Source of the DNA: Eledone cirrhosa
Taxonomy: Eukaryota
Reading direction: 5' to 3'
NCBI GenBank assembly: GCA_964016885.1
Contig: OZ024747.1
Location: forward strand, 72,974,001-73,038,000
Length of the DNA: 64,000 nt
Shown: positions 1 through 52,704 of the stretch, piece after piece
How positions within the stretch are numbered: the stretch's first letter is position 1
Layout of the letters: each line of letters opens with the position of its first letter
The notes under the pieces: model-generated
Told to the model about the DNA's origin: nothing
Seen by the model: the letters and a program-made list of their open reading frames with translations, nothing else
Databases searched by the model: none
Program-made: the position numbers and the translations under genes

Positions 1-1574
1 TGTAACTCTGCATTCAGCAGAGTTATGGGCCTAAAGTTACTTAAGTCGTCCCCCTTGCTCTCGTCCTTCCTCACTAGCGTGACCACGCCCTTGGTCACAG
101 AACAGGGAATTCTCCTGTTCTGTTGCCAGTTGCAATAGACAGCCTCGAGGAGTTCGGAGAACAAGACCGGCATAGCTAAATAAAATTCGTATGGTAGACC
201 ATCGAGACCCGGGGATTTGCCTCTGCTGCATTGGCTGAGCGCTTCCCCGATTTCAGTGGCTGTGATTGGCCTTTCGCAGCACTCCGCTTCGCCGCTCGAA
301 AGACGCGGTAGACCGTCGAGGTATGGACCGAAGTCCACATCCCCGTCCGGCCCACCGCCCCCTCCGAACAGTCGAGCAAAGTGCCTTTGAAAGGCCTCGC
401 ACATCCGCTCAGGTTCAAGGATCACCCGTCCATCCTGGTCTCGCAAAGACCGAATGGTGAATTTAATCCCACTCTTGGCTTCTGTCACGCGGGCCCAGCT
501 AACAGCTTTGGTCCCCTCGTTTCCTAAAGCACGTATTTTACTTCGGACAACGCAGCCTTCGTGCTTCGAGTCAAAGAACTGGCTCAATGCCGTTCTCGTC
601 GCTAACACTCTGGCTACGTCTCCGCTCCTAATCGCCTCTTCTAGTTTATCTGTTAACTCCCTTTCCCTCCTATTTCTATTCGCCGCTAGTTCCTTACTGT
701 AACCTATCGAACTTACTCTAATCTCTCTCTTTAGAGATATCCACCACCTACTGTTGACGATCGCTCCCGTCAACCGCATCTTAACTAAGCTACTAATCCG
801 GTTTCTGTAATCTTTCTTTGTCGGTAAGGACAAGTTCATCTTCCAGTAACCGGGACCCTGTCTATGCGTTCTATCAAGGTTGACCACGCAGGTCACTAAT
901 TTGTGATCTGAATAGCCAACCATGATCAGTTCTGGACAACTAAATACGTCCCTATCCTTACTCCTAACCAAAAACCTATCTAGGTACGATCTAGATTGTC
1001 CACTGCGGTTTGCCCAGGTCCAGGTTGGCGCAGTTGGACAATCTAGTCGAAATCTATCGACCAGGTCGAATCGATCGAGTAACCCCTTGAGGCTGCTACA
1101 CCCCCCTCTATCGGGACATGCCCCTGCATAGTCCCAACGCGCATCTAGGATTCCATTCCAGTCCCCCACTAAAAGCAGGGAACGCGACGTTCCTAGAAAA
1201 GTCTCCAGACGCTGGAAGAAGTCGGCTCTTTCCGCCCCGAAGGGAGCATAAAGACCGACCAGTCTGAAAGCCCCGCCTTCACCGCCTCCGACGTCCAGCA
1301 CCAGTAATCGACCCCCCGGGTCCGAGTGAACAATCTGTACGTCGAGAGTCAGACGTTTATCCAGTAGTACGGCAACTCCCCCCCCGCCTCCGGGTTGACA
1401 GAGAGATGCGTGCATCTCAAAGTCATCGAAGGCGGGCGCCAGCTGTCTCACGCTGCTGATCCGACTCTCGCAAACAACCATCACATCTATACTTTGTGAC
1501 CTGAGGTCACTTACAAGCTTTGCTTGCTTCCAAGCTGAGCCCAGGCCACGCGCGTTCAAACAGCCAACTCTCAA
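1..1574 (-). CDS. Copy 1 ORF2, N-terminal part (APE endonuclease and start of RT), runs off the window
   Basis: Aligns with 5679-7252 of copy 2 ORF2 at offset 5678; I saw substitutions only. Confidence 0.85.
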   Translation of the reverse strand, partial: MRVGCLNARGLGSAWKQAKLVSDLRSQSIDVMVVCESRISSVRQLAPAFDDFEMHASLCQPGGGGGVAVLLDKRLTLDVQIVHSDPGGRLLVLDVGGGEGGAFRLVGLYAPFGAERADFFQRLETFLGTSRSLLLVGDWNGILDARWDYAGACPDRGGCSSLKGLLDRFDLVDRFRLDCPTAPTWTWANRSGQSRSYLDRFLVRSKDRDVFSCPELIMVGYSDHKLVTCVVNLDRTHRQGPGYWKMNLSLPTKKDYRNRISSLVKMRLTGAIVNSRWWISLKREIRVSSIGYSKELAANRNRRERELTDKLEEAIRSGDVARVLATRTALSQFFDSKHEGCVVRSKIRALGNEGTKAVSWARVTEAKSGIKFTIRSLRDQDGRVILEPERMCEAFQRHFARLFGGGGGPDGDVDFGPYLDGLPRLSSGEAECCERPITATEIGEALSQCSRGKSPGLDGLPYEFYLAMPVLFSELLEAVYCNWQQNRRIPCSVTKGVVTLVRKDESKGDDLSNFRPITLLNAEL

Positions 1575-1579
1575 TTGAT

Positions 1580-3385
1580 CTATTTTGGTGTTGAAAGTGA
1601 AGAAAGAAAAGCACTTACCTCTCCGGGTTGCGTAATTTCCATGGCATCAGGTGTGTTGGGTGGAGGGATGTTTTGTGGTGGTGTGGGGGTACACGTGTGT
1701 AGTGGGGTTTGGGTATTTGGAGTTGTGTCAGGGAGAGGGGCGGTTATGGGGAAATCTTTCAAGAGGACGCGATTCAACGGTTTTAAACAAGGGGGGGCTC
1801 ACGTCCCGTCTAAATTGTTCTTTTAAGGAACGATAAAGGTCCAGAGGGACCTTTATCATTTTTAAATGGGTGAAGTTCTCTGTTGAGATAAAGTTTGGCC
1901 CTTCGGTCTGCACCATAGGGTTATTGTTTATTAATTTAACCAGTTTTTTGTTTTCTTTATTTATATATGTGTATTGCAACGTCTTTTTTTGTGATGCTGT
2001 CAATGTTTCGGAGAGGGGAGGCGCAGATTTATTTTTGTTTGTTGAGGGTGGGGTGTTTTTGATTGGAGTTGGTGTTTGTGTGTGGGTTATTTGTGGTGTG
2101 CTGGGTGTGTGTTTTCTTTTTTTTCTTTTAACTTGTCTGAAGGCTTCTCCTCCTTCTTCTTCAGAAGTTGGGGGAAACTCTTCAGCGCTAGGTGGGAGGG
2201 ACGTGTTGTGTGGTTGTTTTTTTTTGCGGGAGGGGTAGATTTGTTACTGTTTTTTTTATTATTTGTTTGGAATGGGTTTTGTGGTGGTGGTGGTAATGTT
2301 TGTGTCGTGCTTGTGGTTGGTGATGGTGGTGGTGATTTTTGTGTCGTGCTTGTGTTTGGTGCTGGTGGTGGTGATGTTTGTGTTGTGTTTGTGGTTGGTG
2401 GTGTCTGTATTTTGTTTGCTGTGTGTGGTATTAGTGTATTTTTGGAGGTGGGTGGTGTTGGTGTACTGTTTGTGGTGGGTGTGGGCAATAGTCCTTTTTG
2501 GGGGATACGTTTCGGGCAGTTAGCCTTAACGTGTCCCCTTTCCATGCATAAATAGCATGCTGGTCTTCTCCCCTCTACAATTATGTCTATTGGGTTAAGG
2601 TCATCCAGCCAGATGCGATCCGGGATTTGTGCTATTCTTTCGGGCCTCATTTGGACTAGTATGTCGAGGCCCATTCCCAGGAACGCATCTCCAGTTGCCT
2701 TCCCCATTGACAGCATAGTGTCTTCGCCCATATCAATGAAGCCAGCAATAGCCCACCAGAAGTCCATTGTGGGCAGCATTGTTTTTACTTTTACTCTCTG
2801 TGTTCTTCTACCCATGTAGGAGGGATAGAAGCTATATGTTGTCGACGAGAGTGGGCTTAGGGAAAGCTTCTCCGCCGTTTCTTTGTCTCTTGTTAGGACC
2901 GAAATGCTGCCATAGAGTCGGTCCTTTCGTATGAAGAGAATATTCTTCATATAGTCTTTTAGGACTAACTCTATTTCCATTTGGCTGGGCTGTGCTGGCT
3001 TTCTTGTCTGGTTCAGTATAGTTCTGTATAGAACTGTGTTTTCTGCTCTGGCTTTCTTGAATTCTGGGGGGGAGTTAATGGAAAACATTCCGTTCTCCCC
3101 CAAAACAATGTGTTTCTTTGCTTCGGCCAGTTTTTCTCTGGCAGCAGTTAGGTCAATTGGTGTGTATGTAATGGATTGTTTTGTTTTCTGGGCGAAAGTT
3201 GCCCTGTCGTTATTTGTATTATTTTCTGTTTGTTTGTTTTCTGTTTGCTCATTTTCCTTAACATTTGTTTTTTCATTTTGTTTGTTTGTTTCAATGTCTA
3301 ATTTTGTTGTAATTATTTTTTGTTCTTCAGACTTGGGGGGCGTGGCAGAGCTAATGGCAGACATGTCTGCCATCTTTTCCGCCAT
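1580..3385 (-). pseudogene. Copy 1 ORF1, frameshifted
   Basis: One A missing from the A-run near 2221 gives the 441-aa truncated ORF. There is also a 1-nt insertion near 1790 and a ~30-bp deletion in the Pro/Thr repeat relative to the 620-aa copies. Confidence 0.85.
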
Positions 3386-3823
3386 GCTGCCAAGAAAGAA
3401 ATTTTTCGGCAAAAATAGATATTTATTTTACCCCCTAAAAAGGGGGTAAATGCAAAAATGTTTCCCTAAATAACAGGGGTTAGTGTTCCAAATGTGTTGC
3501 ACTAAAAAATTTATCCGGTACTTACAATAGTAAGGGTAAATCCCGATGGAATAGCGGAGCCGATGCGAAGCGTGTCTTACTCTATCAAGATAAATTTCTA
3601 TTTATTTGCCACGAGGGCACAAAAGAAGGGGACATTTACACAGTGGGGGAGTTTACATAAATCGAGTAAAGAAAAAAGGAATAACAATAATAATATAACA
3701 ATAAAAGTCCTCAAAAGGGAGGGGGCGTGTTGGGGATTGCACATACCCCCGAAAAGTGTGCAACTCTTTTCGCGGGGGAAGCCCAGAGAGGAGGCGCTCC
3801 CCCTTTCCTCTTCACTTCTTCAC

Positions 3824-6800
3824 CTACAGAACAATGTAGAGAGAAGGCCCATTTACACGGGCCATTCTCGCTTCTTTCACCCACCTTTCATAAAACTGTC
3901 TGGGACCAAGCACTTCTCTCTCCATCCTGATTCTTCTTCCGAAGTGGTATCGGAAGAAGTAAACCAGGTGATGGCCGGAGAGAAAGTCACCCGACCTCAG
4001 ACCTTTCAGGCGCGTCCACCACACAACCTCTTTCATCATGGCTATTACGCACAGAAAGACCGCCTCTGCTTCATTTCTGAAGGGAGGAGGCGGCTTGATG
4101 TTCACCACAGACTCGGCGGTTAATCGAATCGGCGCCACACGCGACAGCAGTCGTTCGACGTAGCCCCACAGATCGGCAACGCCCGGGCAGTGTACCAGTG
4201 CATGCGCAACGGTTTCCTCGTCGCGCACGCATCTGGGACAGATCTTTATCGCGGGATCCCTGCCCGGGCGCCCGTGTCTGTAGAGCTTTTCTCGAACGGG
4301 CAGAGCCCCCCGGTAACACTGCCAGGCTAGGGACCTCTGGAAGTTGTCCATGGGTCCCGGGCCAAAAGTTCTACCGAACAGGCTGGCCAGTTCGTCCTCC
4401 TCCATGCCTAGCGACTCTCCAAGGGTGTCGTCGCCCCTGCTAGCCACCAACCCTCTATAGAATGTCGAGGTGGATTCTCCACTGACAGTCGGGTCCGCTT
4501 GCCAAATAGCCGTGAGCGCCTGGGCACACTCGGTGTGCCAGTTGCCCAGTTTTCTCGGTCTTTGCTTCACCCAGGATTGCAGTTCGGTGAGCGAGACGAG
4601 CTGTGGGAAGGCTCGCCTCACAAACGGGGCCCACACCGGCTGACCGTTGAGGAATACCTGTAGATGCCGTAGCCTCAATGCGTGCCTACGCATCAACAGC
4701 CACGGCATACCCAGCCCTCCTTTCGAAGGGTGCTGGCAGCAGATGGATCTCCTCACCATGGGAGGCCGCTTCTTCCAGAGGAACTGGAAGAGCATGCGTT
4801 CCATGATGGTGAGCTTTTCCTTGGGGCAAGGCACGACGGTCAGGCGGTAGTAGATGACGGACGCTATGTAAGCGTTCGTCACCTCCGCCCGACCTTTCAG
4901 TGATAGTTTGCACGTGGCCCACTTCTGGGTCAGCGCAAACACCCTGCTCGTCACCTCGCCCCAATTCTTCTCCACCTGGAGGTCCGGTCCGAACCAGACC
5001 CCGAGCAGCTTCACCGGGCCCTCCGTCCACCGCCCGACGACACCGTCTAACGGCATCGGTTTGCCCCTCCACGTTCCGAGTTGCAAACCGACTGACTTGT
5101 CCTGGTTCAGCTTAGCCCCCGTCAGCCTTTCGTATTCCTCCAGTAGGGTGGCGATCGCCCCGATTTCCGAGGCGTCCGCCACCATTACTGTTACGTCGTC
5201 GGCATAGGCCGAGACCGCTTTGTGCAATCCCGGTTCCAGGGGTATGCCCCGCAGCAACTCCAACTTCCGCAGCAGTGGCTCGAGAGTCAATACGTACAGA
5301 AGGGAGGAGAGGGGGCACCCCTGTCTGATGGATCGGGTGATTTGAAACGGCTCCGAGAGGTAGCCGTTTACTTTAATCCTAGAGTAGATGTTGCCACTGT
5401 GCATGGCAGAAATCCAGCCCCTGAAAACGGGTCCGAAGCCCGCCGCCGCTAGCACCGCATCCAGGTAACCATGGTCGACCCTATCGAACGCCTTAGATTG
5501 ATCCAAGTTGATCAGGGCCCCACCAAAGCCGGGTTCGTAGCCAACCCTCTCTATGATGTATCGCATGAGGTGGAGGTTGTCGTGAATGGACCTGGACGGG
5601 ATAGCGCATGTCTGCGCGTCTCCCACCAAACCACCCACCACAAGCGCCAACCTCTTCGCCAACACCTTGGCCAAAATCTGTAACTCTGCATTCAGCAGAG
5701 TTATGGGCCTAAAGTTACTTAAGTCGTCCCCCTTGCTCTCGTCCTTCCTCACTAGCGTGACCACGCCCTTGGTCACAGAACAGGGAATTCTCCCGTTCTG
5801 TTGCCAGTTGCAATAGACAGCCTCGAGGAGTTCGGAGAACAAGACCGGCATAGCTAAATAAAGTTCGTATGGTAGACCATCGAGACCCGGGGATTTGCGT
5901 CTGCTGCATTGGCTGAGCGCTTCCCCGATTTCAGTGGCTGTGATTGGCCCTTCGCAGCACTCCGCTTCGCCGCTCGAAAGACGCGGTAGACCGTCGAGGT
6001 ATGGACCGAAGTCCACATCCCCGTCCGGCCCCCCGCCACCTCCGAACAGTCGAGCAAAGTGCCTTTGAAAGGTCTCGCACATTCGCTCAGGTTCAAGGAT
6101 CACCCGTCCATCCTGGTCTCGCAAAGACCGAATGGTGGATTTAATCCCACTCTTGGCTTCTGTCACGCGGGCCCAGCTAACAGCTTTGGTCCCCTCGTTT
6201 CCTAAAGCACGTATTTTACTTCGGACAACGCAGCCTTCGTGCTTCGAGTCAAAGAACTGGCTCAATGCCGTTCTCGTCGCTAACACTCTGGCTACGTCTC
6301 CGCTCCTAATCGCCTCTTCTAGTTTATCTGTTAACTCCCTTTCCCTCCTATTTCTATTCGCCGCTAGTTCCTTACTGTAACCTATCGAACTTACTCTAAT
6401 CTCTCTCTTTAGAGATATCCACCACCTACTGTTGACGATCGCTCCCGTCAACCGCATCTTAACTAAGCTACTAATCCGGTTTCTGTAATCTTTCTTTGTC
6501 GGTAAGGACAAGTTCATCTTCCAGTAACCGGGACCCTGTCTATGCGTTCTATCAAGGTTGACCACGCAGGTCACTAATTTGTGATCTGAATAGCCAACCA
6601 TGATCAGTTCAGGACAACTAAATACGTCCCTATCCTTACTCCTAACCAAAAACCTATCTAGGTACGATCTAGATTGTCCACTGCGGTTTGCCCAGGTCCA
6701 GGTTGGCGCAGTTGGACAATCTAGTCGAAATCTATCGACCAGGTCGAATCGATCGAGTAACCCCTTGAGGCTGCTACACCCCCCTCTATCGGGACATGCC

Positions 6801-7252
6801 CCTGCATAGTCCCAACGCGCATCTAGGATTCCATTCCAGTCCCCCACTAAAAGCAGGGAACGCGACGTTCCTAGAAAAGTCTCCAGACGTTGGAAGAAGT
6901 CGGCTCTTTCCGCCCCGAAGGGAGCATAAAGACCGACCAGTCTGAAAGCCCCGCCTTCACCGCCTCCGACGTCCAGCACCAGTAATCGACCCCCCGGGTC
7001 CGAGTGAACAATCTGTACGTCGAGAGTCAGACGTTTATCCAGTAGTACGGCAACTCCCCCCCCGCCTCCGGGTTGACAGAGAGATGCGTGCATCTCAAAG
7101 TCATCGAAGGCGGGCGCCAGCTGTCTCACGCTGCTGATCCGACTCTCGCAAACAACCATCACATCTATACTTTGTGACCTGAGGTCACTTACAAGCTTTG
7201 CTTGCTTCCAAGCTGAGCCCAGGCCACGCGCGTTCAAACAGCCAACTCTCAA
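3824..7252 (-). CDS. Copy 2 ORF2, intact 1142 aa: APE endonuclease, reverse transcriptase, C-terminal CCHC
   Basis: APE motifs LNARGL, VCESR, LYAP, GDWN, SYLDRFL, SDH. L1/Tx1-type GPGYWKMN and KGGLG. RT motifs KSPGLDG, FRPITLLN, KAFDRV, QGCPLS, YADD. Zinc motif CPRC-x8-H-x4-C. Begins at TTG. Confidence 0.96.
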   Translation of the reverse strand: MRVGCLNARGLGSAWKQAKLVSDLRSQSIDVMVVCESRISSVRQLAPAFDDFEMHASLCQPGGGGGVAVLLDKRLTLDVQIVHSDPGGRLLVLDVGGGEGGAFRLVGLYAPFGAERADFFQRLETFLGTSRSLLLVGDWNGILDARWDYAGACPDRGGCSSLKGLLDRFDLVDRFRLDCPTAPTWTWANRSGQSRSYLDRFLVRSKDRDVFSCPELIMVGYSDHKLVTCVVNLDRTHRQGPGYWKMNLSLPTKKDYRNRISSLVKMRLTGAIVNSRWWISLKREIRVSSIGYSKELAANRNRRERELTDKLEEAIRSGDVARVLATRTALSQFFDSKHEGCVVRSKIRALGNEGTKAVSWARVTEAKSGIKSTIRSLRDQDGRVILEPERMCETFQRHFARLFGGGGGPDGDVDFGPYLDGLPRLSSGEAECCEGPITATEIGEALSQCSRRKSPGLDGLPYELYLAMPVLFSELLEAVYCNWQQNGRIPCSVTKGVVTLVRKDESKGDDLSNFRPITLLNAELQILAKVLAKRLALVVGGLVGDAQTCAIPSRSIHDNLHLMRYIIERVGYEPGFGGALINLDQSKAFDRVDHGYLDAVLAAAGFGPVFRGWISAMHSGNIYSRIKVNGYLSEPFQITRSIRQGCPLSSLLYVLTLEPLLRKLELLRGIPLEPGLHKAVSAYADDVTVMVADASEIGAIATLLEEYERLTGAKLNQDKSVGLQLGTWRGKPMPLDGVVGRWTEGPVKLLGVWFGPDLQVEKNWGEVTSRVFALTQKWATCKLSLKGRAEVTNAYIASVIYYRLTVVPCPKEKLTIMERMLFQFLWKKRPPMVRRSICCQHPSKGGLGMPWLLMRRHALRLRHLQVFLNGQPVWAPFVRRAFPQLVSLTELQSWVKQRPRKLGNWHTECAQALTAIWQADPTVSGESTSTFYRGLVASRGDDTLGESLGMEEDELASLFGRTFGPGPMDNFQRSLAWQCYRGALPVREKLYRHGRPGRDPAIKICPRCVRDEETVAHALVHCPGVADLWGYVERLLSRVAPIRLTAESVVNIKPPPPFRNEAEAVFLCVIAMMKEVVWWTRLKGLRSGDFLSGHHLVYFFRYHFGRRIRMEREVLGPRQFYERWVKEARMARVNGPSLYIVL

Positions 7253-7257
7253 TTGAT

Positions 7258-9063
7258 CTATTTTGGTGTTGAAAGTGAAGAAAGAAAAGCACTTACCTCT
7301 CCGGGTTGCGTAATTTCCATGGCATCAGGTGTGTTGGGTGGAGGGATGTTTTGTGGTGGTGTGGGGGTACACGTGTGTAGTGGGGTTTGGGTATTTGGAG
7401 TTGTGTCAGGGAGAGGGGCGGTTATGGGGAAATCTTTCAAGAGGACGCGATTCAACGGTTTTAAACAAGGGGGGGCTCACGTCCCGTCTAAATTGTTCTT
7501 TTAAGGAACGATAAAGGTCCAGAGGGACCTTTATCATTTTTAAATGGGTGAAGTTCTCTGTTGAGATAAAGTTTGGCCCTTCGGTCTGCACCATAGGGTT
7601 ATTGTTTATTAATTTAACCAGTTTTTTGTTTTCTTTATTTATATATGTGTATTGCAACGTCTTTTTTTGTGATGCTGTCAATGTTTCGGAGAGGGGAGGC
7701 GCAGATTTATTTTTGTTTGTTGAGGGTGGGGTGTTTTTGATTGGAGTTGGTGTTTGTGTGTGGGTTATTTGTGGTGTGCTGGGTGTGTGTTTTCTTTTTT
7801 TTCTTTTAACTTGTCTGAAGGCTTCTCCTCCTTCTTCTTCAGAAGTTGGGGGAAACTCTTCAGCGCTAGGTGGGAGGGACGTGTTGTGTGGTTGTTTTTT
7901 TTTGCGGGAGGGGTAGATTTGTTACTGTTTTTTTTATTATTTGTTTGGAATGGGTTTTGTGGTGGTGGTGGTAATGTTTGTGTCGTGCTTGTGGTTGGTG
8001 ATGGTGGTGGTGATTTTTGTGTCGTGCTTGTGTTTGGTGCTGGTGGTGGTGATGTTTGTGTTGTGTTTGTGGTTGGTGGTGTCTGTATTTTGTTTGCTGT
8101 GTGTGGTATTAGTGTATTTTTGGAGGTGGGTGGTGTTGGTGTACTGTTTGTGGTGGGTGTGGGCAATAGTCCTTTTTGGGGGATACGTTTCGGGCAGTTA
8201 GCCTTAACGTGTCCCCTTTCCATGCATAAATAGCATGCTGGTCTTCTCCCCTCTACAATTATGTCTATTGGGTTAAGGTCATCCAGCCAGATGCGATCCG
8301 GGATTTGTGCTATTCTTTCGGGCCTCATTTGGACTAGTATGTCGAGGCCCATTCCCAGGAACGCATCTCCAGTTGCCTTCCCCATTGACAGCATAGTGTC
8401 TTCGCCCATATCAATGAAGCCAGCAATAGCCCACCAGAAGTCCATTGTGGGCAGCATTGTTTTTACTTTTACTCTCTGTGTTCTTCTACCCATGTAGGAG
8501 GGATAGAAGCTATATGTTGTCGACGAGAGTGGGCTTAGGGAAAGCTTCTCCGCCGTTTCTTTGTCTCTTGTTAGGACCGAAATGCTGCCATAGAGTCGGT
8601 CCTTTCGTATGAAGAGAATATTCTTCATATAGTCTTTTAGGACTAACTCTATTTCCATTTGGCTGGGCTGTGCTGGCTTTCTTGTCTGGTTCAGTATAGT
8701 TCTGTATAGAACTGTGTTTTCTGCTCTGGCTTTCTTGAATTCTGGGGGGGAGTTAATGGAAAACATTCCGTTCTCCCCCAAAACAATGTGTTTCTTTGCT
8801 TCGGCCAGTTTTTCTCTGGCAGCAGTTAGGTCAATTGGTGTGTATGTAATGGATTGTTTTGTTTTCTGGGCGAAAGTTGCCCTGTCGTTATTTGTATTAT
8901 TTTCTGTTTGTTTGTTTTCTGTTTGCTCATTTTCCTTAACATTTGTTTTTTCATTTTGTTTGTTTGTTTCAATGTCTAATTTTGTTGTAATTATTTTTTG
9001 TTCTTCAGACTTGGGGGGCGTGGCAGAGCTAATGGCAGACATGTCTGCCATCTTTTCCGCCAT
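7258..9063 (-). pseudogene. Copy 2 ORF1, frameshifted (same lesions as copy 1)
   Basis: Its 441-aa truncated ORF is identical to that of copy 1. Confidence 0.85.
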
Positions 9064-9501
9064 GCTGCCAAGAAAGAAATTTTTCGGCAAAAATAGATAT
9101 TTATTTTACCCCCTAAAAAGGGGGTAAATGCAAAAATGTTTCCCTAAATAACAGGGGTTAGTGTTCCAAATGTGTTGCACTAAAAAATTTATCCGGTACT
9201 TACAATAGTAAGGGTAAATCCCGATGGAATAGCGGAGCCGATGCGAAGCGTGTCTTACTCTATCAAGATAAATTTCTATTTATTTGCCACGAGGGCACAA
9301 AAGAAGGGGACATTTACACAGTGGGGGAGTTTACATAAATCGAGTAAAGAAAAAAGGAATAACAATAATAATATAACAATAAAAGTCCTCAAAAGGGAGG
9401 GGGCGTGTTGGGGATTGCACATACCCCCGAAAAGTGTGCAACTCTTTTCGCGGGGGAAGCCCAGAGAGGAGGCGCTCCCCCTTTCCTCTTCACTTCTTCA
9501 C

Positions 9502-12500
9502 CTACAGAACAATGTAGAGAGAAGGCCCATTTACACGGGCCATTCTCGCTTCTTTCACCCACCTTTCATAAAACTGTCTGGGACCAAGCACTTCTCTCTC
9601 CATCCTGATTCTTCTTCCGAAGTGGTATCGGAAGAAGTAAACCAGGTGATGGCCGGAGAGAAAGTCACCCGACCTCAGACCTTTCAGGCGCGTCCACCAC
9701 ACAACCTCTTTCATCATGGCTATTACGCACAGAAAGACCGCCTCTGCTTCATTTCTGAAGGGAGGAGGCGGCTTGATGTTCACCACAGACTCGGCGGTTA
9801 ATCGAATCGGCGCCACACGCGACAGCAGTCGTTCGACGTAGCCCCACAGATCGGCAACGCCCGGGCAGTGTACCAGTGCATGCGCAACGGTTTCCTCGTC
9901 GCGCACGCATCTGGGACAGATCTTTATCGCGGGATCCCTGCCCGGGCGCCCGTGTCTGTAGAGCTTTTCTCGAACGGGCAGAGCCCCCCGGTAACACTGC
10001 CAGGCTAGGGACCTCTGGAAGTTGTCCATGGGTCCCGGGCCAAAAGTTCTACCGAACAGGCTGGCCAGTTCGTCTTCCTCCATGCCTAGCGACTCTCCAA
10101 GGGTGTCGTCGCCCCTGCTAGCCACCAACCCTCTATAGAATGTCGAGGTGGATTCTCCACTGACAGTCGGGTCCGCTTGCCAAATAGCCGTGAGCGCCTG
10201 GGCACACTCGGTGTGCCAGTTGCCCAGTTTTCTCGGTCTTTGCTTCACCCAGGATTGCAGTTCGGTGAGCGAGACGAGCTGTGGGAAGGCTCGCCTCACA
10301 AACGGGGCCCACACCGGCTGACCGTTGAGGAATACCTGTAGATGCCGTAGCCTCAATGCGTGCCTACGCATCAACAGCCACGGCATACCCAGCCCTCCTT
10401 TCGAAGGGTGCTGGCAGCAGATGGATCTCCTCACCATGGGAGGCCGCTTCTTCCAGAGGAACTGGAAGAGCATGCGTTCCATGATGGTGAGCTTTTCCTT
10501 GGGGCAAGGCACGACGGTCAGGCGGTAGTAGATGACGGACGCTATGTAAGCGTTCGTCACCTCCGCCCGACCTTTCAGTGATAGTTTGCACGTGGCCCAC
10601 TTCTGGGTCAGCGCAAACACCCTGCTCGTCACCTCGCCCCAATTCTTCTCCACCTGGAGGTCCGGTCCGAACCAGACCCCGAGCAGCTTCACCGGGCCCT
10701 CCGTCCACCGCCCGACGACACCGTCTAACGGCATCGGTTTGCCCCTCCACGTTCCGAGTTGCAAACCGACTGACTTGTCCTGGTTCAGCTTAGCCCCCGT
10801 CAGCCTTTCGTATTCCTCCAGTAGGGTGGCGATCGCCCCGATTTCCGAGGCGTCCGCCACCATTACTGTTACGTCGTCGGCATAGGCCGAGACCGCTTTG
10901 TGCAATCCCGGTTCCAGGGGTATGCCCCGCAGCAACTCCAACTTCCGCAGCAGTGGCTCGAGAGTCAATACGTACAGAAGGGAGGAGAGGGGGCACCCCT
11001 GTCTGATGGATCGGGTGATTTGAAACGGCTCCGAGAGGTAGCCGTTTACTTTAATCCTAGAGTAGATGTTGCCACTGTGCATGGCAGAAATCCAGCCCCT
11101 GAAAACGGGTCCGAAGCCCGCCGCCGCTAGCACCGCATCCAGGTAACCATGGTCGACCCTATCGAACGCCTTAGATTGATCCAAGTTGATCAGGGCCCCA
11201 CCAAAGCCGGGTTCGTAGCCAACCCTCTCTATGATGTATCGCATGAGGTGGAGGTTGTCGTGAATGGACCTGGACGGGATAGCGCATGTCTGCGCGTCTC
11301 CCACCAAACCACCCACCACAAGCGCCAACCTCTTCGCCAACACCTTGGCCAAAATCTGTAACTCTGCATTCAGCAGAGTTATGGGCCTAAAGTTACTTAA
11401 GTCGTCCCCCTTGCTCTCGTCCTTCCTCACTAGCGTGACCACGCCCTTGGTCACAGAACAGGGAATTCTCCCGTTCTGTTGCCAGTTGCAATAGACAGCC
11501 TCGAGGAGTTCGGAGAACAAGACCGGCATAGCTAAATAAAGTTCGTATGGTAGACCATCGAGACCCGGGGATTTGCGTCTGCTGCATTGGCTGAGCGCTT
11601 CCCCGATTTCAGTGGCTGTGATTGGCCCTTCGCAGCACTCCGCTTCGCCGCTCGAAAGACGCGGTAGACCGTCGAGGTATGGACCGAAGTCCACATCCCC
11701 GTCCGGCCCCCCGCCACCTCCGAACAGTCGAGCAAAGTGCCTTTGAAAGGTCTCGCACATTCGCTCAGGTTCAAGGATCACCCGTCCATCCTGGTCTCGC
11801 AAAGACCGAATGGTGGATTTAATCCCACTCTTGGCTTCTGTCACGCGGGCCCAGCTAACAGCTTTGGTCCCCTCGTTTCCTAAAGCACGTATTTTACTTC
11901 GGACAACGCAGCCTTCGTGCTTCGAGTCAAAGAACTGGCTCAATGCCGTTCTCGTCGCTAACACTCTGGCTACGTCTCCGCTCCTAATCGCCTCTTCTAG
12001 TTTATCTGTTAACTCCCTTTCCCTCCTATTTCTATTCGCCGCTAGTTCCTTACTGTAACCTATCGAACTTACTCTAATCTCTCTACTGTTGACGATCGCT
12101 CCCGTCAACCGCATCTTAACTAAGCTACTAATCCGGTTTCTGTAATCTTTCTTTGTCGGTAAGGACAAGTTCATCTTCCAGTAACCGGGACCCTGTCTAT
12201 GCGTTCTATCAAGGTTGACCACGCAGGTCACTAATTTGTGATCTGAATAGCCAACCATGATCAGTTCAGGACAACTAAATACGTCCCTATCCTTACTCCT
12301 AACCAAAAACCTATCTAGGTACGATCTAGATTGTCCACTGCGGTTTGCCCAGGTCCAGGTTGGCGCAGTTGGACAATCTAGTCGAAATCTATCGACCAGG
12401 TCGAATCGATCGAGTAACCCCTTGAGGCTGCTACACCCCCCTCTATCGGGACATGCCCCTGCATAGTCCCAACGCGCATCTAGGATTCCATTCCAGTCCC

Positions 12501-12909
12501 CCACTAAAAGCAGGGAACGCGACGTTCCTAGAAAAGTCTCCAGACGTTGGAAGAAGTCGGCTCTTTCCGCCCCGAAGGGAGCATAAAGACCGACCAGTCT
12601 GAAAGCCCCGCCTTCACCGCCTCCGACGTCCAGCACCAGTAATCGACCCCCCGGGTCCGAGTGAACAATCTGTACGTCGAGAGTCAGACGTTTATCCAGC
12701 AGTACGGCAACTCCCCCCCCGCCTCCGGGTTGACAGAGAGATGCGTGCATCTCAAAGTCATCGAAGGCGGGCGCCAGCTGTCTCACGCTGCTGATCCGAC
12801 TCTCGCAAACAACCATCACATCTATACTTTGTGACCTGAGGTCACTTAGAAGCTTTGCTTGCTTCCAAGCTGAGCCCAGGCCACGCGCGTTCAAACAGCC
12901 AACTCTCAA
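9502..12909 (-). CDS. Copy 3 ORF2, 1135 aa, with a 21-bp in-frame deletion
   Basis: Same motifs as copy 2; seven residues (WWISLKR) missing near 12083. Confidence 0.93.
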   Translation of the reverse strand: MRVGCLNARGLGSAWKQAKLLSDLRSQSIDVMVVCESRISSVRQLAPAFDDFEMHASLCQPGGGGGVAVLLDKRLTLDVQIVHSDPGGRLLVLDVGGGEGGAFRLVGLYAPFGAERADFFQRLETFLGTSRSLLLVGDWNGILDARWDYAGACPDRGGCSSLKGLLDRFDLVDRFRLDCPTAPTWTWANRSGQSRSYLDRFLVRSKDRDVFSCPELIMVGYSDHKLVTCVVNLDRTHRQGPGYWKMNLSLPTKKDYRNRISSLVKMRLTGAIVNSREIRVSSIGYSKELAANRNRRERELTDKLEEAIRSGDVARVLATRTALSQFFDSKHEGCVVRSKIRALGNEGTKAVSWARVTEAKSGIKSTIRSLRDQDGRVILEPERMCETFQRHFARLFGGGGGPDGDVDFGPYLDGLPRLSSGEAECCEGPITATEIGEALSQCSRRKSPGLDGLPYELYLAMPVLFSELLEAVYCNWQQNGRIPCSVTKGVVTLVRKDESKGDDLSNFRPITLLNAELQILAKVLAKRLALVVGGLVGDAQTCAIPSRSIHDNLHLMRYIIERVGYEPGFGGALINLDQSKAFDRVDHGYLDAVLAAAGFGPVFRGWISAMHSGNIYSRIKVNGYLSEPFQITRSIRQGCPLSSLLYVLTLEPLLRKLELLRGIPLEPGLHKAVSAYADDVTVMVADASEIGAIATLLEEYERLTGAKLNQDKSVGLQLGTWRGKPMPLDGVVGRWTEGPVKLLGVWFGPDLQVEKNWGEVTSRVFALTQKWATCKLSLKGRAEVTNAYIASVIYYRLTVVPCPKEKLTIMERMLFQFLWKKRPPMVRRSICCQHPSKGGLGMPWLLMRRHALRLRHLQVFLNGQPVWAPFVRRAFPQLVSLTELQSWVKQRPRKLGNWHTECAQALTAIWQADPTVSGESTSTFYRGLVASRGDDTLGESLGMEEDELASLFGRTFGPGPMDNFQRSLAWQCYRGALPVREKLYRHGRPGRDPAIKICPRCVRDEETVAHALVHCPGVADLWGYVERLLSRVAPIRLTAESVVNIKPPPPFRNEAEAVFLCVIAMMKEVVWWTRLKGLRSGDFLSGHHLVYFFRYHFGRRIRMEREVLGPRQFYERWVKEARMARVNGPSLYIVL

Positions 12910-12914
12910 TTGAT

Positions 12915-18632: not shown

Positions 18633-18637
18633 TTGAT

Positions 18638-20675: not shown

Positions 20676-20714
<39 letters not shown>

Positions 20715-24387: not shown

Positions 24388-24392
24388 TTGAT

Positions 24393-35033: not shown

Positions 35034-35038
35034 ATCAA

Positions 35039-38469: not shown

Positions 38470-38715
38470 GTGAAGAAGTGAAAAGGAAAGGGGGAGCGCC
38501 TCCTCTCTGGGCTTCCCCCGCGAAAAGGGTTGCACACTTTTCGGGGGTATGTGCAATCCCGAACACGCCCCCTCCCTTTTGAGGACTTTTTATTATTATA
38601 TTATTATTGTTATTCCTTTTTCTTTACTCGATTTATGTAAACTCCCCCACTGTGTATTTGTCCCCTTCTTTTGTGCCCACGTGGCAAATAAATAGAAATT
38701 TATCTATCTATCTAT

Positions 38716-39564
38716 TGGTCCGCAGCAAGTGCGACGACACGCTTGGAGAAACTCTAAGCGTAGAGGAGGACGAACTGGCCAGTCTGTTCGGTAGGACCTT
38801 CCGCCCGCGACCAATGGACAACTTCCAAAAGTCCCTGGCCTGGCAGTGCTACCGAGGAGCTCTACCAGTTCGCGACAAGGTCTACAGACACGGGCGCCCG
38901 GGTAGGGACCCTTCGAAAAAGATCTGTCCGAGATGCGTGCGCGACGAGGAAACTGTCGCGCACGCATTTGTACACTGCCCGGGCGTTACCGACCCGTGGG
39001 GCTATGTAGAACGACTATTATCGCTGGTGGGACCAATCCGGTTGACCACCGAGTCCATTGTCATGATCAAACCGCCACCCTGCTTCAAAAACGAGGGAGA
39101 GGCGGTTTTCCTATGTGTTATGGCTATGGTGAAAGAGGTTATATGGTGGACGAGGTTAAAAGGGCTGAGGTCAGACACCTTTCTCTCCGACGAGCACTGA
39201 TTCGTTTTTTCAAATATCATTTTGGAAGAAGAATCAGGATGGAGAGAGAGGTGCTGTACCCCAGCAAATTTTATAAAAGGTGGGTGAATGTGGCAAAGAT
39301 GGCCCGAGAGGTTGGGCCTTCTCTCTATATAAGCCTGTAGTTGGAGGAAGAGAGGAAGGGAGTACTCACTCTTGGTGATCCTGGAGATGAGGGTTGTACA
39401 TTTTTTCGGGGTGTGTACAACCCCTGTGTAACACCTCCTCCTTATTGGGGATATCAATTGTTATTTGTTATTTTATTAATAGTTTTATTTTCATATACCT
39501 GTATGTAAACTCCCCATTTGTATTTGTCCCCTTCTTTTGTGCCCTTGTGGCTAATAAAGAAATT
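38716..39564 (+). mobile_element. Family B: 5'-truncated, diverged sister element (ORF2 C-terminus and 3'UTR)
   Basis: Translates to DDTLGETLSVEEDELASLFGRTF..CPRCVRDEETVAHAFVHC, homologous to family A with many substitutions. Ends AATAAAGAAATT plus (TATC)3. Confidence 0.92.
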
Positions 39565-40021
39565 TATCTATCTATCTACATATATATGCATACATAAATA
39601 CACACAAACACAAACACACATATATGGGATGCTACAAGTTGCGACACGTTCTCCAGATTTAATTTATTCCACCCGGCCACAAATCCAGACAGCGCCACCT
39701 GTAACATAGAGGAGTGAAAGATAATCAGATATCGCCTGATTCTTTTTTGTTCTTATTGCCATGGAGATTTCTGGTGTCCTTAGTCTACTGACTGCCATTT
39801 TTCTCCGAAATATCAGGAGGAGTGTATGTCGTCTGAAGAAGAAACCTCATATATTTCCAATGGTTCATTTAAAGATGTCGCTGTCCTCTGTTGTAATGTT
39901 TTTGCCAAATTGTCTGCGAGGCACAGCTGAAATATTCCGATCAGCCAAGTCTTTTCTCCTTTTCTCTTTTAATTTAATTTTTTCTATCCCACCCCTTTTC
40001 TCTTTTTCTGTTTATCGATCT

Positions 40022-43135: not shown

Positions 43136-43188
<53 letters not shown>

Positions 43189-43296: not shown

Positions 43297-43358
<62 letters not shown>

Positions 43359-46000: not shown

Positions 46001-46309
46001 GACATATAAAACATACATATATACATACATACCTGAATACATACATACATGCACACATACACCGACACATATATAACTCTAATATCTATCTATCTATCTA
46101 TCTATCTTGATAGAGTAAGACACGCTTCGCATCGGCTCCGCTATTCCATCGGGATTTACCCTTACTATTGTAAGTACCGGATAAATTTTTTAGTGCAACA
46201 CATTTGGAACACTAACCCGTGTTATTTAGGGAAACATTTTTGCATTTACCCCCTTTTTAGGGGGTAAAATAAATATCTATTTTTGCCGAAAAATTTCTTT
46301 CTTGGCAGC

Positions 46310-48130
46310 ATGGCGGAAAAGATGGCAGACATGTCTGCCATTAGCTCTGCCACGCCCCCCAAGTCTGAAGAACAAAAAATAATTACAACAAAATTAGACA
46401 TTGAAACAAACAAACAAAATGAAAAAACAAATGTTAAGGAAAATGAGCAAACAGAAAACAAACAAACAGAAAATAATACAAATAACGACAGGGCAACTTT
46501 CGCCCAGAAAACAAAACAATCCATTACATACACACCAATTGACCTAACTGCCGCCAGAGAAAAACTGGCCGAAGCAAAGAAACGCATTGTTTTGGGGGAG
46601 AACGGAATGTTTTCCATTAACTCCCCCCCAGAATTCAAGAAAGCCAGAGCAGAAAACACAGTTCTCTACAGAACTATACTGAACCAGACAAGAAAGCCAG
46701 CACAGCCCAGCCAAATGGAAATAGAGTTAGTCCTAAAAGACTATATGAAGAATATTCTCTTCATACGAAAGGACCGACTCTATGGCAGCATTTCAGTCCT
46801 AACAAGAGACAAAAAAACGGCGGAGAAGCTTTCCCTAAGCCCACTCTCATCGACAACATATAGCTTCTATCCCTCCTACATGGGTAGAAGAACACAGAGA
46901 GTAAAAGTAAAAACAATGCTGCCCACAATGGACTTCTGGTGGGCTATTGCTGGCTTCATTGATATGGGCGAAGACACAATGCTGTCAATGGGGAAGGCAA
47001 CTGGAGATGCGTTCCTGGGAATGGGCCTCGACATACTAGTCCAAATGAGGCCCGAAAGAATAGCACAAATCCCGGATCGCATCTGGCTGGATGACCTTAC
47101 CCCAATAGACATAATTGTAGAGGGGAGAAGACCAGCATGCTATTTATGCATGGAAAGGGGACACGTTAAGGCTAACTGCCCGAAACGTATACCCCAAAAA
47201 GGACTATTGCCCACACCCACCACAAACAGTACACCAACACCACGCACCTCCAAAAATACACTAATACCACACACAGCAAACAAAATACAGACACCACCAA
47301 CCACAAACACAACACAAACATCACCACCACCAGCACCAAACACAAGCACGACACAAAAATCACCACCACCAACCACAACACAAACACCACCATCACCAAG
47401 CACGACACAAACATTACCACCACCACCACAAAACCCATTCCAAACAAATAATAAAAAAAACAGTAACAAATCTACCCCTCCCGCAAAAAAAAACAACCAC
47501 ACAACACGTCCCTCCCACCTAGCGCTGAAGAGTTTCACCCAACTTCTGAAGAAGCAGGAGGAGAAGCCTTCAGAGAAGTTAAAAGAAAAAAAAGAAAACA
47601 CACACCCAGCACACCACAAATAACCCACACACAAACACCAACTCCAATCAAAAACACCCCACCCTCAACAAACAAAAATAAATCTGCGCCTCCCCTCTCC
47701 GAAACATTGACAGCATCACAAAAAAAGACGTTGCAATACACATATATAAATAAAGAAAACAAAAAAACTGGTTAAATTAATAAACAATAACCCTATGGTG
47801 CAGACCGAAGGGCCAAACTTTATCTCAACAGAGAACTTCACCCATTTAAAAATGATAAAGGTCCCTCTGGACCTTTATCGTTCCTTAAAAGAACAATTTA
47901 GACGGGACGTGAGCCCCCCCTGTTTAAAACCGTTGAATCGCGTCCTCTTGAAAGATTTCCCCATAACCGCCCCTCTCCCTGACACAACTCCAAATACCCC
48001 AACCCCACCACACACGTGTACCCCCACACCACCACAAAACATCCCTTCACCCAACACACCTGATGCCATGGAAATTACGCAACCCGGAGAGGTAAGTGCT
48101 TTTCTTTCTTCACTTTCAACACCAAAATAG
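46310..48130 (+). pseudogene. Copy 7 ORF1, frameshifted in A-runs
   Basis: Split into 446-aa and 111-aa pieces; A-run indels near 47490 and 47765. Confidence 0.82.
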
Positions 48131-48135
48131 ATCAA

Positions 48136-51100
48136 TTGAGAGTTGGCTGTTTGAACGCGCGTGGCCTGGGATCAGCTTGGAAGCAAGCAAAGCTTCTAAG
48201 TGACCTCAGGTCACAAAGTATAGATGTGATGGTTGTTTGCGAGAGTCGGATCAGCAGCGTGAGACAGCTGGCGCCCGCCTTCGATGACTTTGAGATGCAC
48301 GCATCTCTCTGTCAACCCGGAGGCGGGGGGGGGGGGGGAGTTGCCGTACTGCTGGATAAACGTCTGACTCTCGACGTACAGATTGTTCACTCGGACCCGG
48401 GGGGTCGATTACTGGTGCTGGACGTCGGAGGCGGTGAAGGCGGGGCTTTCAGACTGGTCGGTCTTTATGCTCCCTTCGGGGCGGAAAGAGCCGACTTCTT
48501 CCAGCGTCTGGAGACTTTTCTAGGAACGTTGCGTTCCCTGCTTTTAGTGGGGGACTGGAATGGAATCCTAGATGCGCGTTGGGACTATGCAGGGGCATGT
48601 CCCGATAGAGGGGGGGGGGTGTAGCAGCCTCAAGGGGTTACTCGATCGATTCGACCTGGTCGATAGATTTCGACTAGATTGTCCAACTGCGCCAACCTGG
48701 ACCTGGGCAAACCGCAGTGGACAATCTAGATCGTACCTAGATAGGTTTTTGGTTAGGAGTAAGGATAGGGACGTATTTAGTTGTCCAGAACTGATCATGG
48801 TTGGCTATTCAGATCACAAATTAGTGACCTGCGTGGTCAACCTTGATAGAACGCATAGACAGGGTCCCGGTTACTGGAAGATGAACTTGTCCTTACCGAC
48901 AAAGAAAGATTACAGAAACCGGATTAGTAGCTTAGTTAAGATGCGGTTGACGGGAGCGATCGTCAACAGTAGGTGGTGGATATCTCTAAAGAGAGAGATT
49001 AGAGTAAGTTCGATAGGTTACAGTAAGGAACTAGCGGCGAATAGAAATAGGAAGGAAAGGGAGTTAACAGATAAACTAGAAGAGGCGATTAGGAGCGGAG
49101 ACGTAGCCAGAGTGTTAGCAACGAGAACGGCATTGAGCCAGTTCTTTGACGCGAAGCACGAAGGCTGCGTTGTCCGAAGTAAAATACGTGCTTTAGGAAA
49201 CGAGGAGACCAAAGCTTTTAGCTGGGCCCGCGTGACAGAAGCCAAGAGTGGGATTAAATCCACCATTCGGTCTTTGCGAGACCAGGATGGACGGGTGATC
49301 CTTGAACCTGAGCGAATGTGCGAGACCTTTCAAAGGCACTTTGCTCGACTGTTCGGAGGTGGCGGGGGGCCGGACGGGGATGTGGACTTCGGTCCATACC
49401 TCGACGGTTTACCGCGTCTTTCGAGCGGCGAAGCGGAGTGCTGCGAAAGGCCAATCACAGCCACTGAAATCGGGGAAGCGCTCAGCCAATGCAGCAGACG
49501 CAAATCCCCGGGTCTCGATGGTCTACCATACGAACTTTATTTAGCTATGCCGGTCTTGTTCTCCGAACTCCTCGAGGCTGTCTATTGCAACTGGCAACAG
49601 AACGGGAGAATTCCCTGTTCTGTGACCAAGGGCGTGGTCACGCTAGTGAGGAAGGACGAGAGCAAGGGGGACGACTTAAGTAACTTTAGGCCCATAACTC
49701 TGCTGAATGCAGAGTTACAGATTTTGGCCAAGGTGCTGGCGAAGAGGTTGGCGCTTGTGGTGTGTGGTTTGGTGGGAGACGCGCAGACATGCGCTATCCC
49801 GTCCAGGTCCATTCACGACAACCTCCACCTCATGCGATACATCATAGAGAGGGTTGGCTACGAACCCGGCTTTGGTGGGGCCCTGATCAACTTGGATCAA
49901 TCTAAGGCGTTCGATAGGGTCGACCATGGTTACCTGGATGCGGTGCTAGCGGCGGCGGGCTTCGGACCCGTTTTCAGGGGCTGGATTTCTGCCATGCACA
50001 GTGGCAACATCTACTCTAGGATTAAAGTAAACGGCTACCTCTCGGAGCCGTTTCAAATCACCCGATCCATCAGACAGGGGTGCCCCCTCTCCTCCCTTCT
50101 GTACGTATTGACTCTCGAGCCACTGCTGCGGAAGTTGGAGTTGCTGCGGGGCATACCCCTGGAACCGGGATTGCACAAAGCGGTCTCGGCCTATGCCGAC
50201 GACGTAACAGTAATGGTGGCGGACGCCTCGGAAATCGGGGCGATCGCCACCCTACTGGAGGAATACGAAAGGCTGACGGGGGCTAAGCTGAACCAGGACA
50301 AGTCAGTCGGTTTGCAACTCGGAACGTGGAGGGGCAAACCGATGCCGTTAGACGGTGTCGTCGGGCGGTGGACGGAGGGCCCGGTGAAGCTGCTCGGGGT
50401 CTGGTTCGGACCGGACCTCCAGGTGGAGAAGAATTGGGGCGAGGTGACGAGCAGGGTGTTTGCGCTGACCCAGAAGTGGGCCAAGTGCAAACTATCACTG
50501 AAAGGTCGGGCGGAGGTGACGAACGCTTACATAGCGTCCGTCATCTACTACCGCCTGACCGTCGTGCCTTGCCCCAAGGAAAAGCTCACCATCATGGAAC
50601 GCATGCTCTTCCAATTCCTCTGGAAGAAGCGGCCTCCCATGGTGAGGAGATCCATCTGCTGCCAGCACCCTTCGAAAGGAGGGCTGGGTATGCCGTGGCT
50701 GTTGATGCGTAGGCACGCATTGAGGCTACGGCATCTACAGGTATTCCTCAACAGTCAGCCGGAGTGGGCCCCGTTTGTGAGGCGAGCCTTCCCACAGCTC
50801 GTCTCGCTCACCGAACTGCAATCCTGGGTGAAGCAAAGACCGAGAAAACTAGGCAACTGGCACACCGAGTGTGCCCAGGCGCTCACGGCTATCTGGCAAG
50901 CGGACCCGACTGTCAGTGGAGAATCCACCTCGACATTCTATAGAGGGTTGGTGGCTAGCAGGGGCGACGACACCCTTGGAGAGTCGCTAGGCATGGAGGA
51001 GGACGAACTGGCCAGCCTGTTCGGTAGAACTTTCGGCCCGGGACCCATGGACAACTTCCAGAGGTCCCTAGCCTGGCAGTGTTACCGGGGGGCTCTGCCC

Positions 51101-51573
51101 GTTCGAGAAAAGCTCTACAGACACGGGCGCCCGGGCAGGGATCCCGCGAAAAAGATCTGTCCCAGATGCGTGCGCGACGAGGAAACCGTTGCGCATGCAC
51201 TGGTACACTGCCCGGGCGTTGCCGATCTGTGGGGCTACGTCGAACGACTGCTGTCGCGTGTGGCGCCGATTCGATTAACCGCCGAGTCTGTGGTGAACAT
51301 CAAGCCGCCTCCTCCCTTCAGAAATGAAGCAGAGGCGGTCTTTCTGTGCGTAATAGCCATGATGAAAGAGGTTGTGTGGTGGACGCGCCTGAAAGGTCTG
51401 AGGTCGGGTGACTTTCTCTCCGGCCATCACCTGGTTTACTTCTTCCGATACCACTTCGGAAGAAGAATCAGGATGGAGAGAGAAGTGCTTGGTCCCAGAC
51501 AGTTTTATGAAAGGTGGGTGAAAAAGCGAGAATGGCCCGTGTAAATGGGCCTTCTCTCTACATTGTTCTGTAG
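48136..51573 (+). pseudogene. Copy 7 ORF2, frameshifted
   Basis: G14 tract (in frame), G10 versus G6 at 48610-48619 (frameshift), and a 1-nt deletion near 51523. Confidence 0.82.
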
Positions 51574-51825
51574 GTGAAGAAGTGAAGAGGAAAGGGGGAG
51601 CGCCTCCTCTCTGGGCTTCCCCCGCGAAAAGAGTTGCACACTTTTCGGGGGTATGTGCAATCCCCAACACGCCCCCTCCCTTTTGAGGACTTTTTATTGT
51701 TATATTATTATTGTTATTCCTTTTTTCTTTACTCGATTTATGTAAACTCCCCCACTGTGTAAATGTCCCCTTCTTTTGTGCCCTCGTGGCAAATAAATAG
51801 AAATTTATCTATCTATCTATCTATC

Positions 51826-52559
51826 AGGCTTGGCAGTGCTACCGAGGAGCTCTACCAGTTCGAGACAAGCTCTACAGACATGGGCGCCCGGGCAGGGACC
51901 CTTCGAAAAAGATCTGTCCGGGATGCGTGCGAGACTAAGAAACCGTCGCGCACGCATTCGTACACTGCCTGGGCGTTACCGACCTGTGGGGCAATGTAGA
52001 ACGACTATTGTCGCGGGTGGGACCAATCCGGTTGACCACCGAATCCATTGTCATGATCAAACCACCACCCTCCTTCAAAAACGAAGGAGAGGCGGTTTTC
52101 CTTTGTGTGATAGCTATGGCGAAAGAGGTTGTAGGGTGGACAAGGTTGAAAGGGCTGAGGTCAGACACCTTTCTCTCCGGCCAACAACTGATTCTTTTTT
52201 TCAAATACCACTTTGGAAGAAGAATCAGGATGGAGAGAGAGGTCCTGTACCCCAGAAATTTTTATGAAAGGTGGGTGAAAGTGGCGAGAATGGCCCGAGT
52301 GAATAGGCCTTCTCTATATCAGCCTGTAGGTTGAGGAAAAAGAGGAAGAGAGGAAAGGGGTACTCACTCTTCGTACTCCTGGAGATAAGGGTTGCACATT
52401 TTTTTTCGTGGGTATGCGTTACCCATATGTAATGTCTCCCCCTATCGATTAATTTTTAAATTGCATTTGTGATAGTATTTTACACGTTTTTATTGTATGT
52501 AAACTTCCCCCTTTGTATTTCTCTCCTTCTTTTGTGCCCCTGTGGCTAATAAAGAAACA
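51826..52559 (+). mobile_element. Family B second 5'-truncated copy
   Basis: Starts at the AWQCYRGALP-coding region with indels; 3'UTR resembles 39340-39564; ends AATAAAGAAACA plus (TATC)4. Confidence 0.9.
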
Positions 52560-52704
52560 TATCTATCTATCTATCAGTGCGTGGAGGAAGCAGACAGAGT
52601 GGTTGCACTCTTTCACGATCGCAACTTGCCCAGCGGGGGAAAGGCGCAGGAGATGACGTCACAATGAAAGTCCCCACCGTCAATAATGATGGGGACGAGA
52701 ATAA

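Follow-up and report, generated by a model that had tools for sequence, protein, structure and literature searches.

Strong support for TATC microsatellites as the target of a young, probably Tx1-type retrotransposon family in the cephalopod Eledone cirrhosa

Investigating a stretch of 64,000 nucleotides of Eledone cirrhosa (assembly GCA_964016885.1, contig OZ024747.1, positions 72,974,001 to 73,038,000 of the forward strand; the whole stretch is called the window, and coordinates are window positions), we found seven copies (W1-W7) of a 5.7-kilobase (kb) unit, family A, which in a self-comparison of the window are mutually 98-99% identical, together with two 3' fragments at 75-80% (B1 and B2), which represent older subfamilies. 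The unit has two open reading frames (ORFs), ORF1 of 611-613 amino acids (aa) with one zinc knuckle and ORF2 with an apurinic/apyrimidinic (AP)-type endonuclease, a reverse transcriptase and a zinc finger, and is discussed here as a long interspersed element (LINE), with regard to its insertion into the microsatellite (TATC)n, or (GATA)n on the complementary strand. W1-W5 stand head to tail on the minus strand (locus 1), while on the plus strand W6 is followed by B1 (locus 2) and W7 by B2 (locus 3). The features are as follows.

1..3588, minus strand: W1, family A, 5' part, the remainder lying left of the window; ORF1 and ORF2 both broken
3589..3592, minus strand: single TATC unit separating W2 and W1
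3593..9266, minus strand: W2, family A, full length; ORF1 frameshifted, ORF2 open
9267..9270, minus strand: single TATC unit separating W3 and W2
9271..14952, minus strand: W3, family A, full length; ORF1 and ORF2 open
14953..14968, minus strand: (TATC)4 spacer
14969..20676, minus strand: W4, family A, full length; ORF2 frameshifted close to its start
20677..20726, minus strand: spacer of (TATC)2, a TC-rich stretch and (TATC)4; on the plus strand four GATA units at 20677, a GA-rich stretch and two units at 20719
20727..26436, minus strand: W5, family A, full length; ORF1 and ORF2 open
20959..24459, minus strand: ORF2 of W5, 1,166 codons between stops, coding for an AP-type endonuclease, a reverse transcriptase and a zinc finger at the C-terminus; ATA at the ORF2 start
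24393..26234, minus strand: ORF1 of W5, 613 aa; one CX2CX4HX4C knuckle
26437..26448, minus strand: (TATC)3, 5' target flank of locus 1
32975..32994, plus strand: (TATC)5, 5' target flank of locus 2
32995..38700, plus strand: W6, family A, full length; ORF2 frameshifted close to its start
38701..38712, plus strand: (TATC)3 separating W6 and B1
38716..39564, plus strand: B1, 5'-truncated, older subfamily; 77% to A, 85% to B2
39565..39576, plus strand: (TATC)3, 3' end of locus 2
46083..46106, plus strand: (TATC)6, 5' target flank of locus 3
46107..51805, plus strand: W7, family A, full length; ORF1 and ORF2 both frameshifted
51806..51825, plus strand: (TATC)5 separating W7 and B2
51826..52559, plus strand: B2, 5'-truncated, another older subfamily; 75% to A; terminates in GAAACA
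52560..52575, plus strand: (TATC)4, 3' end of locus 3

All 17 element ends visible in the window adjoin TATC on the sense strand, the 5' end of B1 at a distance of three extra bases, and two of the junctions consist of one TATC unit only; the 18th end, the 3' end of W1, is found 2,089 bases beyond the left edge of the window, again with TATC units following. The original prediction, made from the letters of the window, is thereby confirmed regarding the placement of every visible end. Its description of the 3' end, GAAATT followed by TATC in place of poly(A), stands for the TATC and for the absence of poly(A) from the window's element ends, but not for B2 with its differing terminus, and of its seven A and two B elements the seven A copies stand, whereas B1 and B2 belong to different subfamilies. 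Its statement that no tract of (TATC)3 or more lacks an element is correct in the window, where nine of nine such tracts touch one, but does not extend to the genome, since six of the eight distinct tracts found in 40 random 10-kb stretches have no adjoining element. A 3'-end profile search of the window gave eight matches, every one of them at these elements. It should also be noted that, within a set of 69 full-length copies, W1, W2 and W3 have each other as closest relatives and could have arisen by duplication on the spot, which is not clearly the case for W4-W7. The nine copies may accordingly represent fewer than nine independent insertions.

Based on exact pattern counts over the 3.0-gigabase genome, which exclude copies with any change in the pattern, TATC precedes 557 of 566 family A 5' ends and follows 544 of 552 3' ends, while it occurs at only 0.40% of random positions. 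The possibility, raised by the original prediction against itself, that most genomic copies have a 5' flank other than TATC is thus contradicted, and both ends exceed the level that PMC4494074 uses for target specificity, namely that a single type of sequence makes up over 20% of the flanks. We further fetched 78 copies whole, comprising the best-scoring 39+39 matches and hence not a random sample; TATC lies directly upstream in 72 of the 74 copies reaching the 5' end and directly downstream in 77 of 78, and poly(A) is absent from all 78 3' ends. The perfect TATC run upstream peaks at five units, or 20 base pairs (bp; 26 of 74 copies). Downstream the perfect runs are two-peaked, with 1-9 units (a single unit in 9 of 78) and with 14-20 units in 20 of 78, so that TATC tracts may gain units during insertion or later. 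Most family A copies are full length: exact 5' and 3' ends are about equally numerous, 35 of the 39 copies selected through the 3' end continue up to the 5' end and 29 of 30 extend for at least 1.5 kb; the older subfamilies are mostly truncated.

A repeat at both ends need not be a target. If the element made its own TATC tail, the 5' TATC could come merely from stacking on the tails of other members or from tandem duplication, as might be suspected from the 31 of 74 full-length copies which lie directly behind another member's 3' end and from the mutual relatedness of W1-W3. Yet 41 of the remaining 43 copies have TATC at the 5' end all the same, and many of these follow unique DNA or old decayed tracts. 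Truncated copies are particularly informative, because they are unable to bring a 5' flank of their own and nevertheless adjoin TATC, which identifies it as the target: five truncated copies, selected because no other member stands upstream, all lie behind (TATC)5-15 that is preceded by unique DNA, and a TATC-like 5' flank is also present in 16 of 30 B2-type copies, far above the 0.33% of random positions. Moreover, target duplications containing letters other than TATC were found in L114 (20 bp), L111 (20 bp plus three extra units) and L157 (8 bp), and such variant units imply that the tract predates the insertion. In L345, a truncated copy of 188 bp, a duplication of 12-16 bp extends into the unique flank; longer matches also occur in L108 and L110, but inside tandem arrays, and the match in L129 may be chance. 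We therefore regard the self-made tail as largely refuted already and as a very improbable source of the pattern.

Discrimination between repeats is likewise pronounced. Related 3' ends join (TATC)3 6,328 times but (TGTC)3 only eight times in a genome pattern count, although tract matches of the two kinds are about equally frequent in 400 kb of random sequence (nine TATC and seven TGTC). In the same 400 kb there are 67 TATG and 1,986 TA tract matches, and these far commoner tracts are unused by A; neighbouring TC runs do not alter the junction unit, which stays TATC. The eight 3' ends joined to (TGTC)3 (L315-L322) resemble those of the TATC subfamilies and appear to be a rare off-target use of a related repeat; no dedicated TGTC family was found under the 3'-end pattern used, families with other 3' ends falling outside that pattern. 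Repeat-rich regions can gather insertions passively, as has been stated for Waldo-A/B (PMC3812793), and one might accordingly suppose that A inserts at random and survives only in TATC tracts, or that the arrangement is an artefact of assembly. Both are barely credible here. Pairs of family A copies differ by as little as 0.07-1%, which makes them too young for sorting by survival, and random insertion would account neither for the single orientation and single register nor for the unused TA and TATG tracts; against an artefact, the copies are mutually different and spread over many contigs.

A young sister family, which surfaced in random stretches of the genome (L201, spanning 4188-9978, and L205) and includes L195 and L291-L310, is 98-99% identical among its members and about 70% identical to A across most of ORF2, but is flanked by (ATT)n. 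Each of 20 whole copies has ATT units on either side, and ATT runs adjoin all 30 5' ends and all 30 3' ends examined, one 3' end being off by a base; two duplications, of 15 and 18 bp, include a variant unit, and a first look yielded 2,354 candidates for the family's 3' end. In a quick reverse transcriptase tree (rooted at its midpoint, comprising 64 of 65 rows, with neither a mammalian L1 nor a row labelled from Repbase), nine TATC-side rows form a clade with a Shimodaira-Hasegawa-like approximate likelihood ratio test (SH-aLRT) value of 99, sister to the ATT family. The ATT copies are 75-82% identical to A in the reverse transcriptase core but only 55-60% in the endonuclease, in which seven aligned positions are fixed differently between eight TATC-side and three ATT rows; the tip of the endonuclease hairpin carries S or T on the TATC side and I in the ATT rows. 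The hairpin loop was reported to affect target choice in L1 chimeras, but grafting it did not transfer specificity (PMC1950540). The specificity for TATC was expected by the original prediction to be kept across two diverged subfamilies and is in fact found in more than two.

Regarding its coding capacity, both ORFs are open in 9 of the 69 full-length family A copies examined. ORF2 matches the Pfam families Exo_endo_phos (E-value 8e-9), RVT_1 (4e-24) and zf-RVT (3e-5; 25.1 bits, below the cut-off of 27.5), and the same search gave no further family and no RNase H; the CX2CX4HX4C knuckle of ORF1 was read from the translation, its match to Pfam zf-CCHC (E-value 0.019) being below cut-off. The endonuclease keeps the catalytic N, E, Y, D-x-N, D and D-H motifs, its structure model reaches a predicted local distance difference test score (pLDDT) of 93, and its best fold matches are LINE-1 endonucleases (template modelling score 0.81-0.84, E-value 3e-19). 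The ratio of nonsynonymous to synonymous substitution rates (dN/dS) between two subfamilies is 0.19 over the endonuclease domain, limited to the first 242 codons because the partner copy carries a stop. ORF2 aligns end to end with residues 9-875 of L1 ORF2p; its score is 169 bits with human L1, compared with 385 for the highest-scoring fish protein. Among proteins with a name, the one nearest to ORF2 comes from Argonauta hians (67%); further relatives are unnamed, one at 70% and others at 40-45%. In the quick tree, which contains no labelled references, the lineage clusters with proteins of fish, one of which bears the name YTX2 (SH-aLRT 93, under the 95 mark); identity with the fish proteins found is no higher than 34-38% across the reverse transcriptase region, and none of these proteins is labelled Kibi or Koshi. 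The Tx1 clade is characterised by a CCHC zinc knuckle in ORF1. We thus place the element, from its sequence, as a probable L1/Tx1-group two-ORF LINE, whose Tx1 membership rests on anatomy and on a tree without labelled references. Two metagenome scans returned nothing for a 43% relative and only matches of 23-36% for A. In runs compared with L054:722-1925, the 3' part of the family is matched by contigs from two further organisms, so that relatives occur in other species as well.

How ORF2 of family A is started is peculiar. None of 66 readable copies has an ATG at the ORF2 start, while five sister copies do; at the position where the sisters have ATG in a good start context, A has an ATA overlapping the ORF1 stop (about 24390-24400 of the minus strand in W5), and its first in-frame ATG falls beyond the first catalytic strand. 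Judged by these letters, ORF2 would need initiation at AUA, a change of frame where the ORF1 stop overlaps, or protein supplied by a sister. Splice-donor-like motifs (GGTAAG, GGTAGG or GGTTAG) occur near the ORF1 end in all seven copies of the A, B and ATT families inspected (about 24430 in W5), and 6 of 10 copies carry an acceptor-like CTGTAG where ORF2 stops (about 20959 in W5), according to a pattern search in which some rows ended too early. Donor-like GTAAGT motifs are also present in the 5' untranslated region of A (about 33058 and 33195 in W6), with similar motifs in four sisters, and an acceptor-like stretch immediately before the ORF1 ATG is seen in A only. A search of the 5' end for ribozymes or other RNA families gave two chance-level microRNA matches only, and none at gathering score in the window. 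A hairpin of the upstream TCTATC with the GATAGA at the 5' end of A was considered but dropped, because the similar motif of the ATT family cannot pair with its flank; GATAGA is taken as a putative promoter-like motif.

The abundant repeat at window 40165-40339, with another copy near 57,300-57,640, resembles a short interspersed element (SINE), and its 3' end resembles that of this LINE lineage; it may be akin to described octopus SINEs. ATTA follows 31 of 32 copies of it, and in 10 of the 32 a duplication of 10-19 bp begins at the ATTA motif (1.2% in shuffled sequence), from which it follows that the motif there comes from the target. If the shared 3' end means that the lineage mobilises it, this SINE would be a candidate partner of the ATT branch, and a short motif read in the DNA together with a staggered cut would then suffice, which favours the endonuclease over an RNA guide.

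Taken together, the specificity for TATC is real and strongly supported, and we consider it very probable that family A is a young two-ORF LINE inserting into (TATC)n in a single orientation and in register, likely by way of an AP-type endonuclease nicking the GATA strand, which then primes reverse transcription. Target-primed reverse transcription is established LINE biology. The ORF2 protein would accordingly nick the GATA strand at a unit boundary, reverse transcription would be primed from the nick and copy the RNA from its GAAAUU end, and the second strand would be cut about 8-20 bases further on before the complementary DNA is joined. The resulting duplication would leave a fresh TATC at either side, so that later copies could stack head to tail in one orientation. 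The choice between TATC and ATT would be set by the endonuclease domain, and transcriptional read-through into a few units of the repeat may assist priming or the joining of the 5' end.

Such read-through units might even choose the target, with a UAUC at the RNA end pairing with a GATA strand that an endonuclease of loose specificity has nicked, which would confine priming to TATC sites. This would explain why the first downstream unit is TATC even in the nine copies whose tract stops at once, and would fit the long perfect runs of 14-20 units, the three extra units between duplication and element in L111 and the exact 5' joints of full-length copies. It agrees poorly with the eight related 3' ends joined to (TGTC)3 without a TATC unit, with the junction of L157 at a TATA unit derived from the target, with the SINE's ATTAT sitting within its duplication and with an endonuclease diverging more than the reverse transcriptase between the TATC and ATT families (57-60% compared with 81-82% identity), and we hold it to be improbable. 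Also unlikely is a lineage caught in switching between TATC and ATT, whose landing site is programmed as much by RNA-borne repeat units as by the endonuclease, so that a changed RNA end would retarget it, and in which A moves almost only at full length and without an ORF2 AUG.

Several observations weigh against the proposed insertion by a TATC-specific endonuclease of the element itself. The 5' boundary lacks TATC in two of the four family A rows which are not full length (L131 and L150) and in the partial row L158. In six of the nine copies with a single downstream TATC, the unique letters that follow are not duplicated beyond a few bases; the target duplication is accordingly often short, lost or hidden. 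Among 30 B2-type copies, 16 have a TATC-like 5' flank (0.33% of 20,000 random positions do), but at least six of these 16 lie behind another member's tail and are not independent, and the other 14 are below the threshold and by eye also without TATC, the boundary in five of them being set by a library edge or an indel. TATA, moreover, follows 6 of the 30, and the older subfamilies are looser in their target, or decayed. Contigs of four sequencing runs, compared with one truncated copy, provided no joint across the insertion, no cover of the left flank and no empty allele. Finally, with no ORF2 ATG in any readable copy, A may be moved by the protein of a sister.

Apart from these elements, the window contains tandem arrays with units of 17, 12, 8 and 86 bp (26493-27282, 27387-32471, 44032-44840 and 52844-53103), and the long ORFs across 27,300-32,500 and 44,000-44,850 are by-products of such arrays. 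A GC-rich stretch begins at 52576, immediately past the last (TATC)4; it may be the beginning of another element and is without a match to the A proteins.

The mechanism of microsatellite targeting has been described as not well understood (PMC3812793), and two young intact sister families with about 81% identity in the reverse transcriptase core and only seven fixed endonuclease differences offer a natural pair for domain or residue swaps testing target choice. That family A apparently inserts mostly at full length makes it interesting for site-directed gene insertion. GATA tracts, moreover, are reshaped by the elements, and as a rough estimate about a tenth to a quarter of them may carry one. 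TATC/GATA, and ATT for the sister family, join the short list of Tx1-type microsatellite targets, in an invertebrate and with genome-wide counts.

In the literature searched, which did not extend to Repbase or Dfam, we found no non-LTR (long terminal repeat) element specific for TATC/GATA: the target is not listed in the parts of PMC4494074 and PMC3812793 available, nor is there anything on it in the corresponding parts of PMC8869645, PMC3706591 and PMC4758252. There is a distinct though minor chance that it already stands recorded in Repbase or Dfam. Thirteen recently active L1-Tx1 families were reported in Octopus vulgaris (PMC13282606), in a paper whose main text contains neither 'target' nor 'GATA'.

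Human L1 ends in poly(A), and LINEs of the L2/CR1/Rex type have a self-made repeat at the 3' end only, with unrelated 5' flanks. Family A differs from L1 proper by its 3' ends devoid of poly(A) (78 of 78) and from the L2/CR1/Rex type by its 5' flanks ending in TATC (557 of 566). Waldo and Mino belong to the R1 clade, and Dong to the R4 clade with a different endonuclease. These three, described as non-LTR elements specific for (ACAY)n, (AC)n and (TAA)n, respectively, are of other clades than A, and none of them is listed for TATC/GATA in the available parts of PMC3812793; the unit class of Dong is the same as that of the ATT sister family. With Tx1L of Xenopus and human L1, family A shares the endonuclease fold, in which a beta-hairpin loop is implicated in target choice, but Tx1L targets a transposon and L1 targets TTTT/AA (PMC1950540), both unlike TATC. 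The teleost fish elements Kibi and Koshi target (TC)n and (TTC)n (Kojima and Fujiwara 2004, as cited in PMC4494074 and PMC3812793) and, like A, are AP-endonuclease LINEs on a pyrimidine-rich sense-strand microsatellite whose relatives use different units; the units themselves differ, the junction unit of A being TATC and not (TC)n, (TTC)n, (TTCC)n or (TTTC)n. The crocodilian families Tx1-1_Crp, Tx1-5_Crp, Tx1-6_Crp, Tx1-1_Gav and Tx1-2/3/5/8_AMi, found at (TTCC)n/(TTTC)n (PMC4494074), are Tx1-clade LINEs preferring a four-base microsatellite, as A appears to be, but A uses another unit, lives in a cephalopod and shows its unit at about 98% of junctions, compared with the threshold of 20% applied in that study. 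Microsatellite targeting by Tx1 elements is already known, and TATC is a further target of this known habit.

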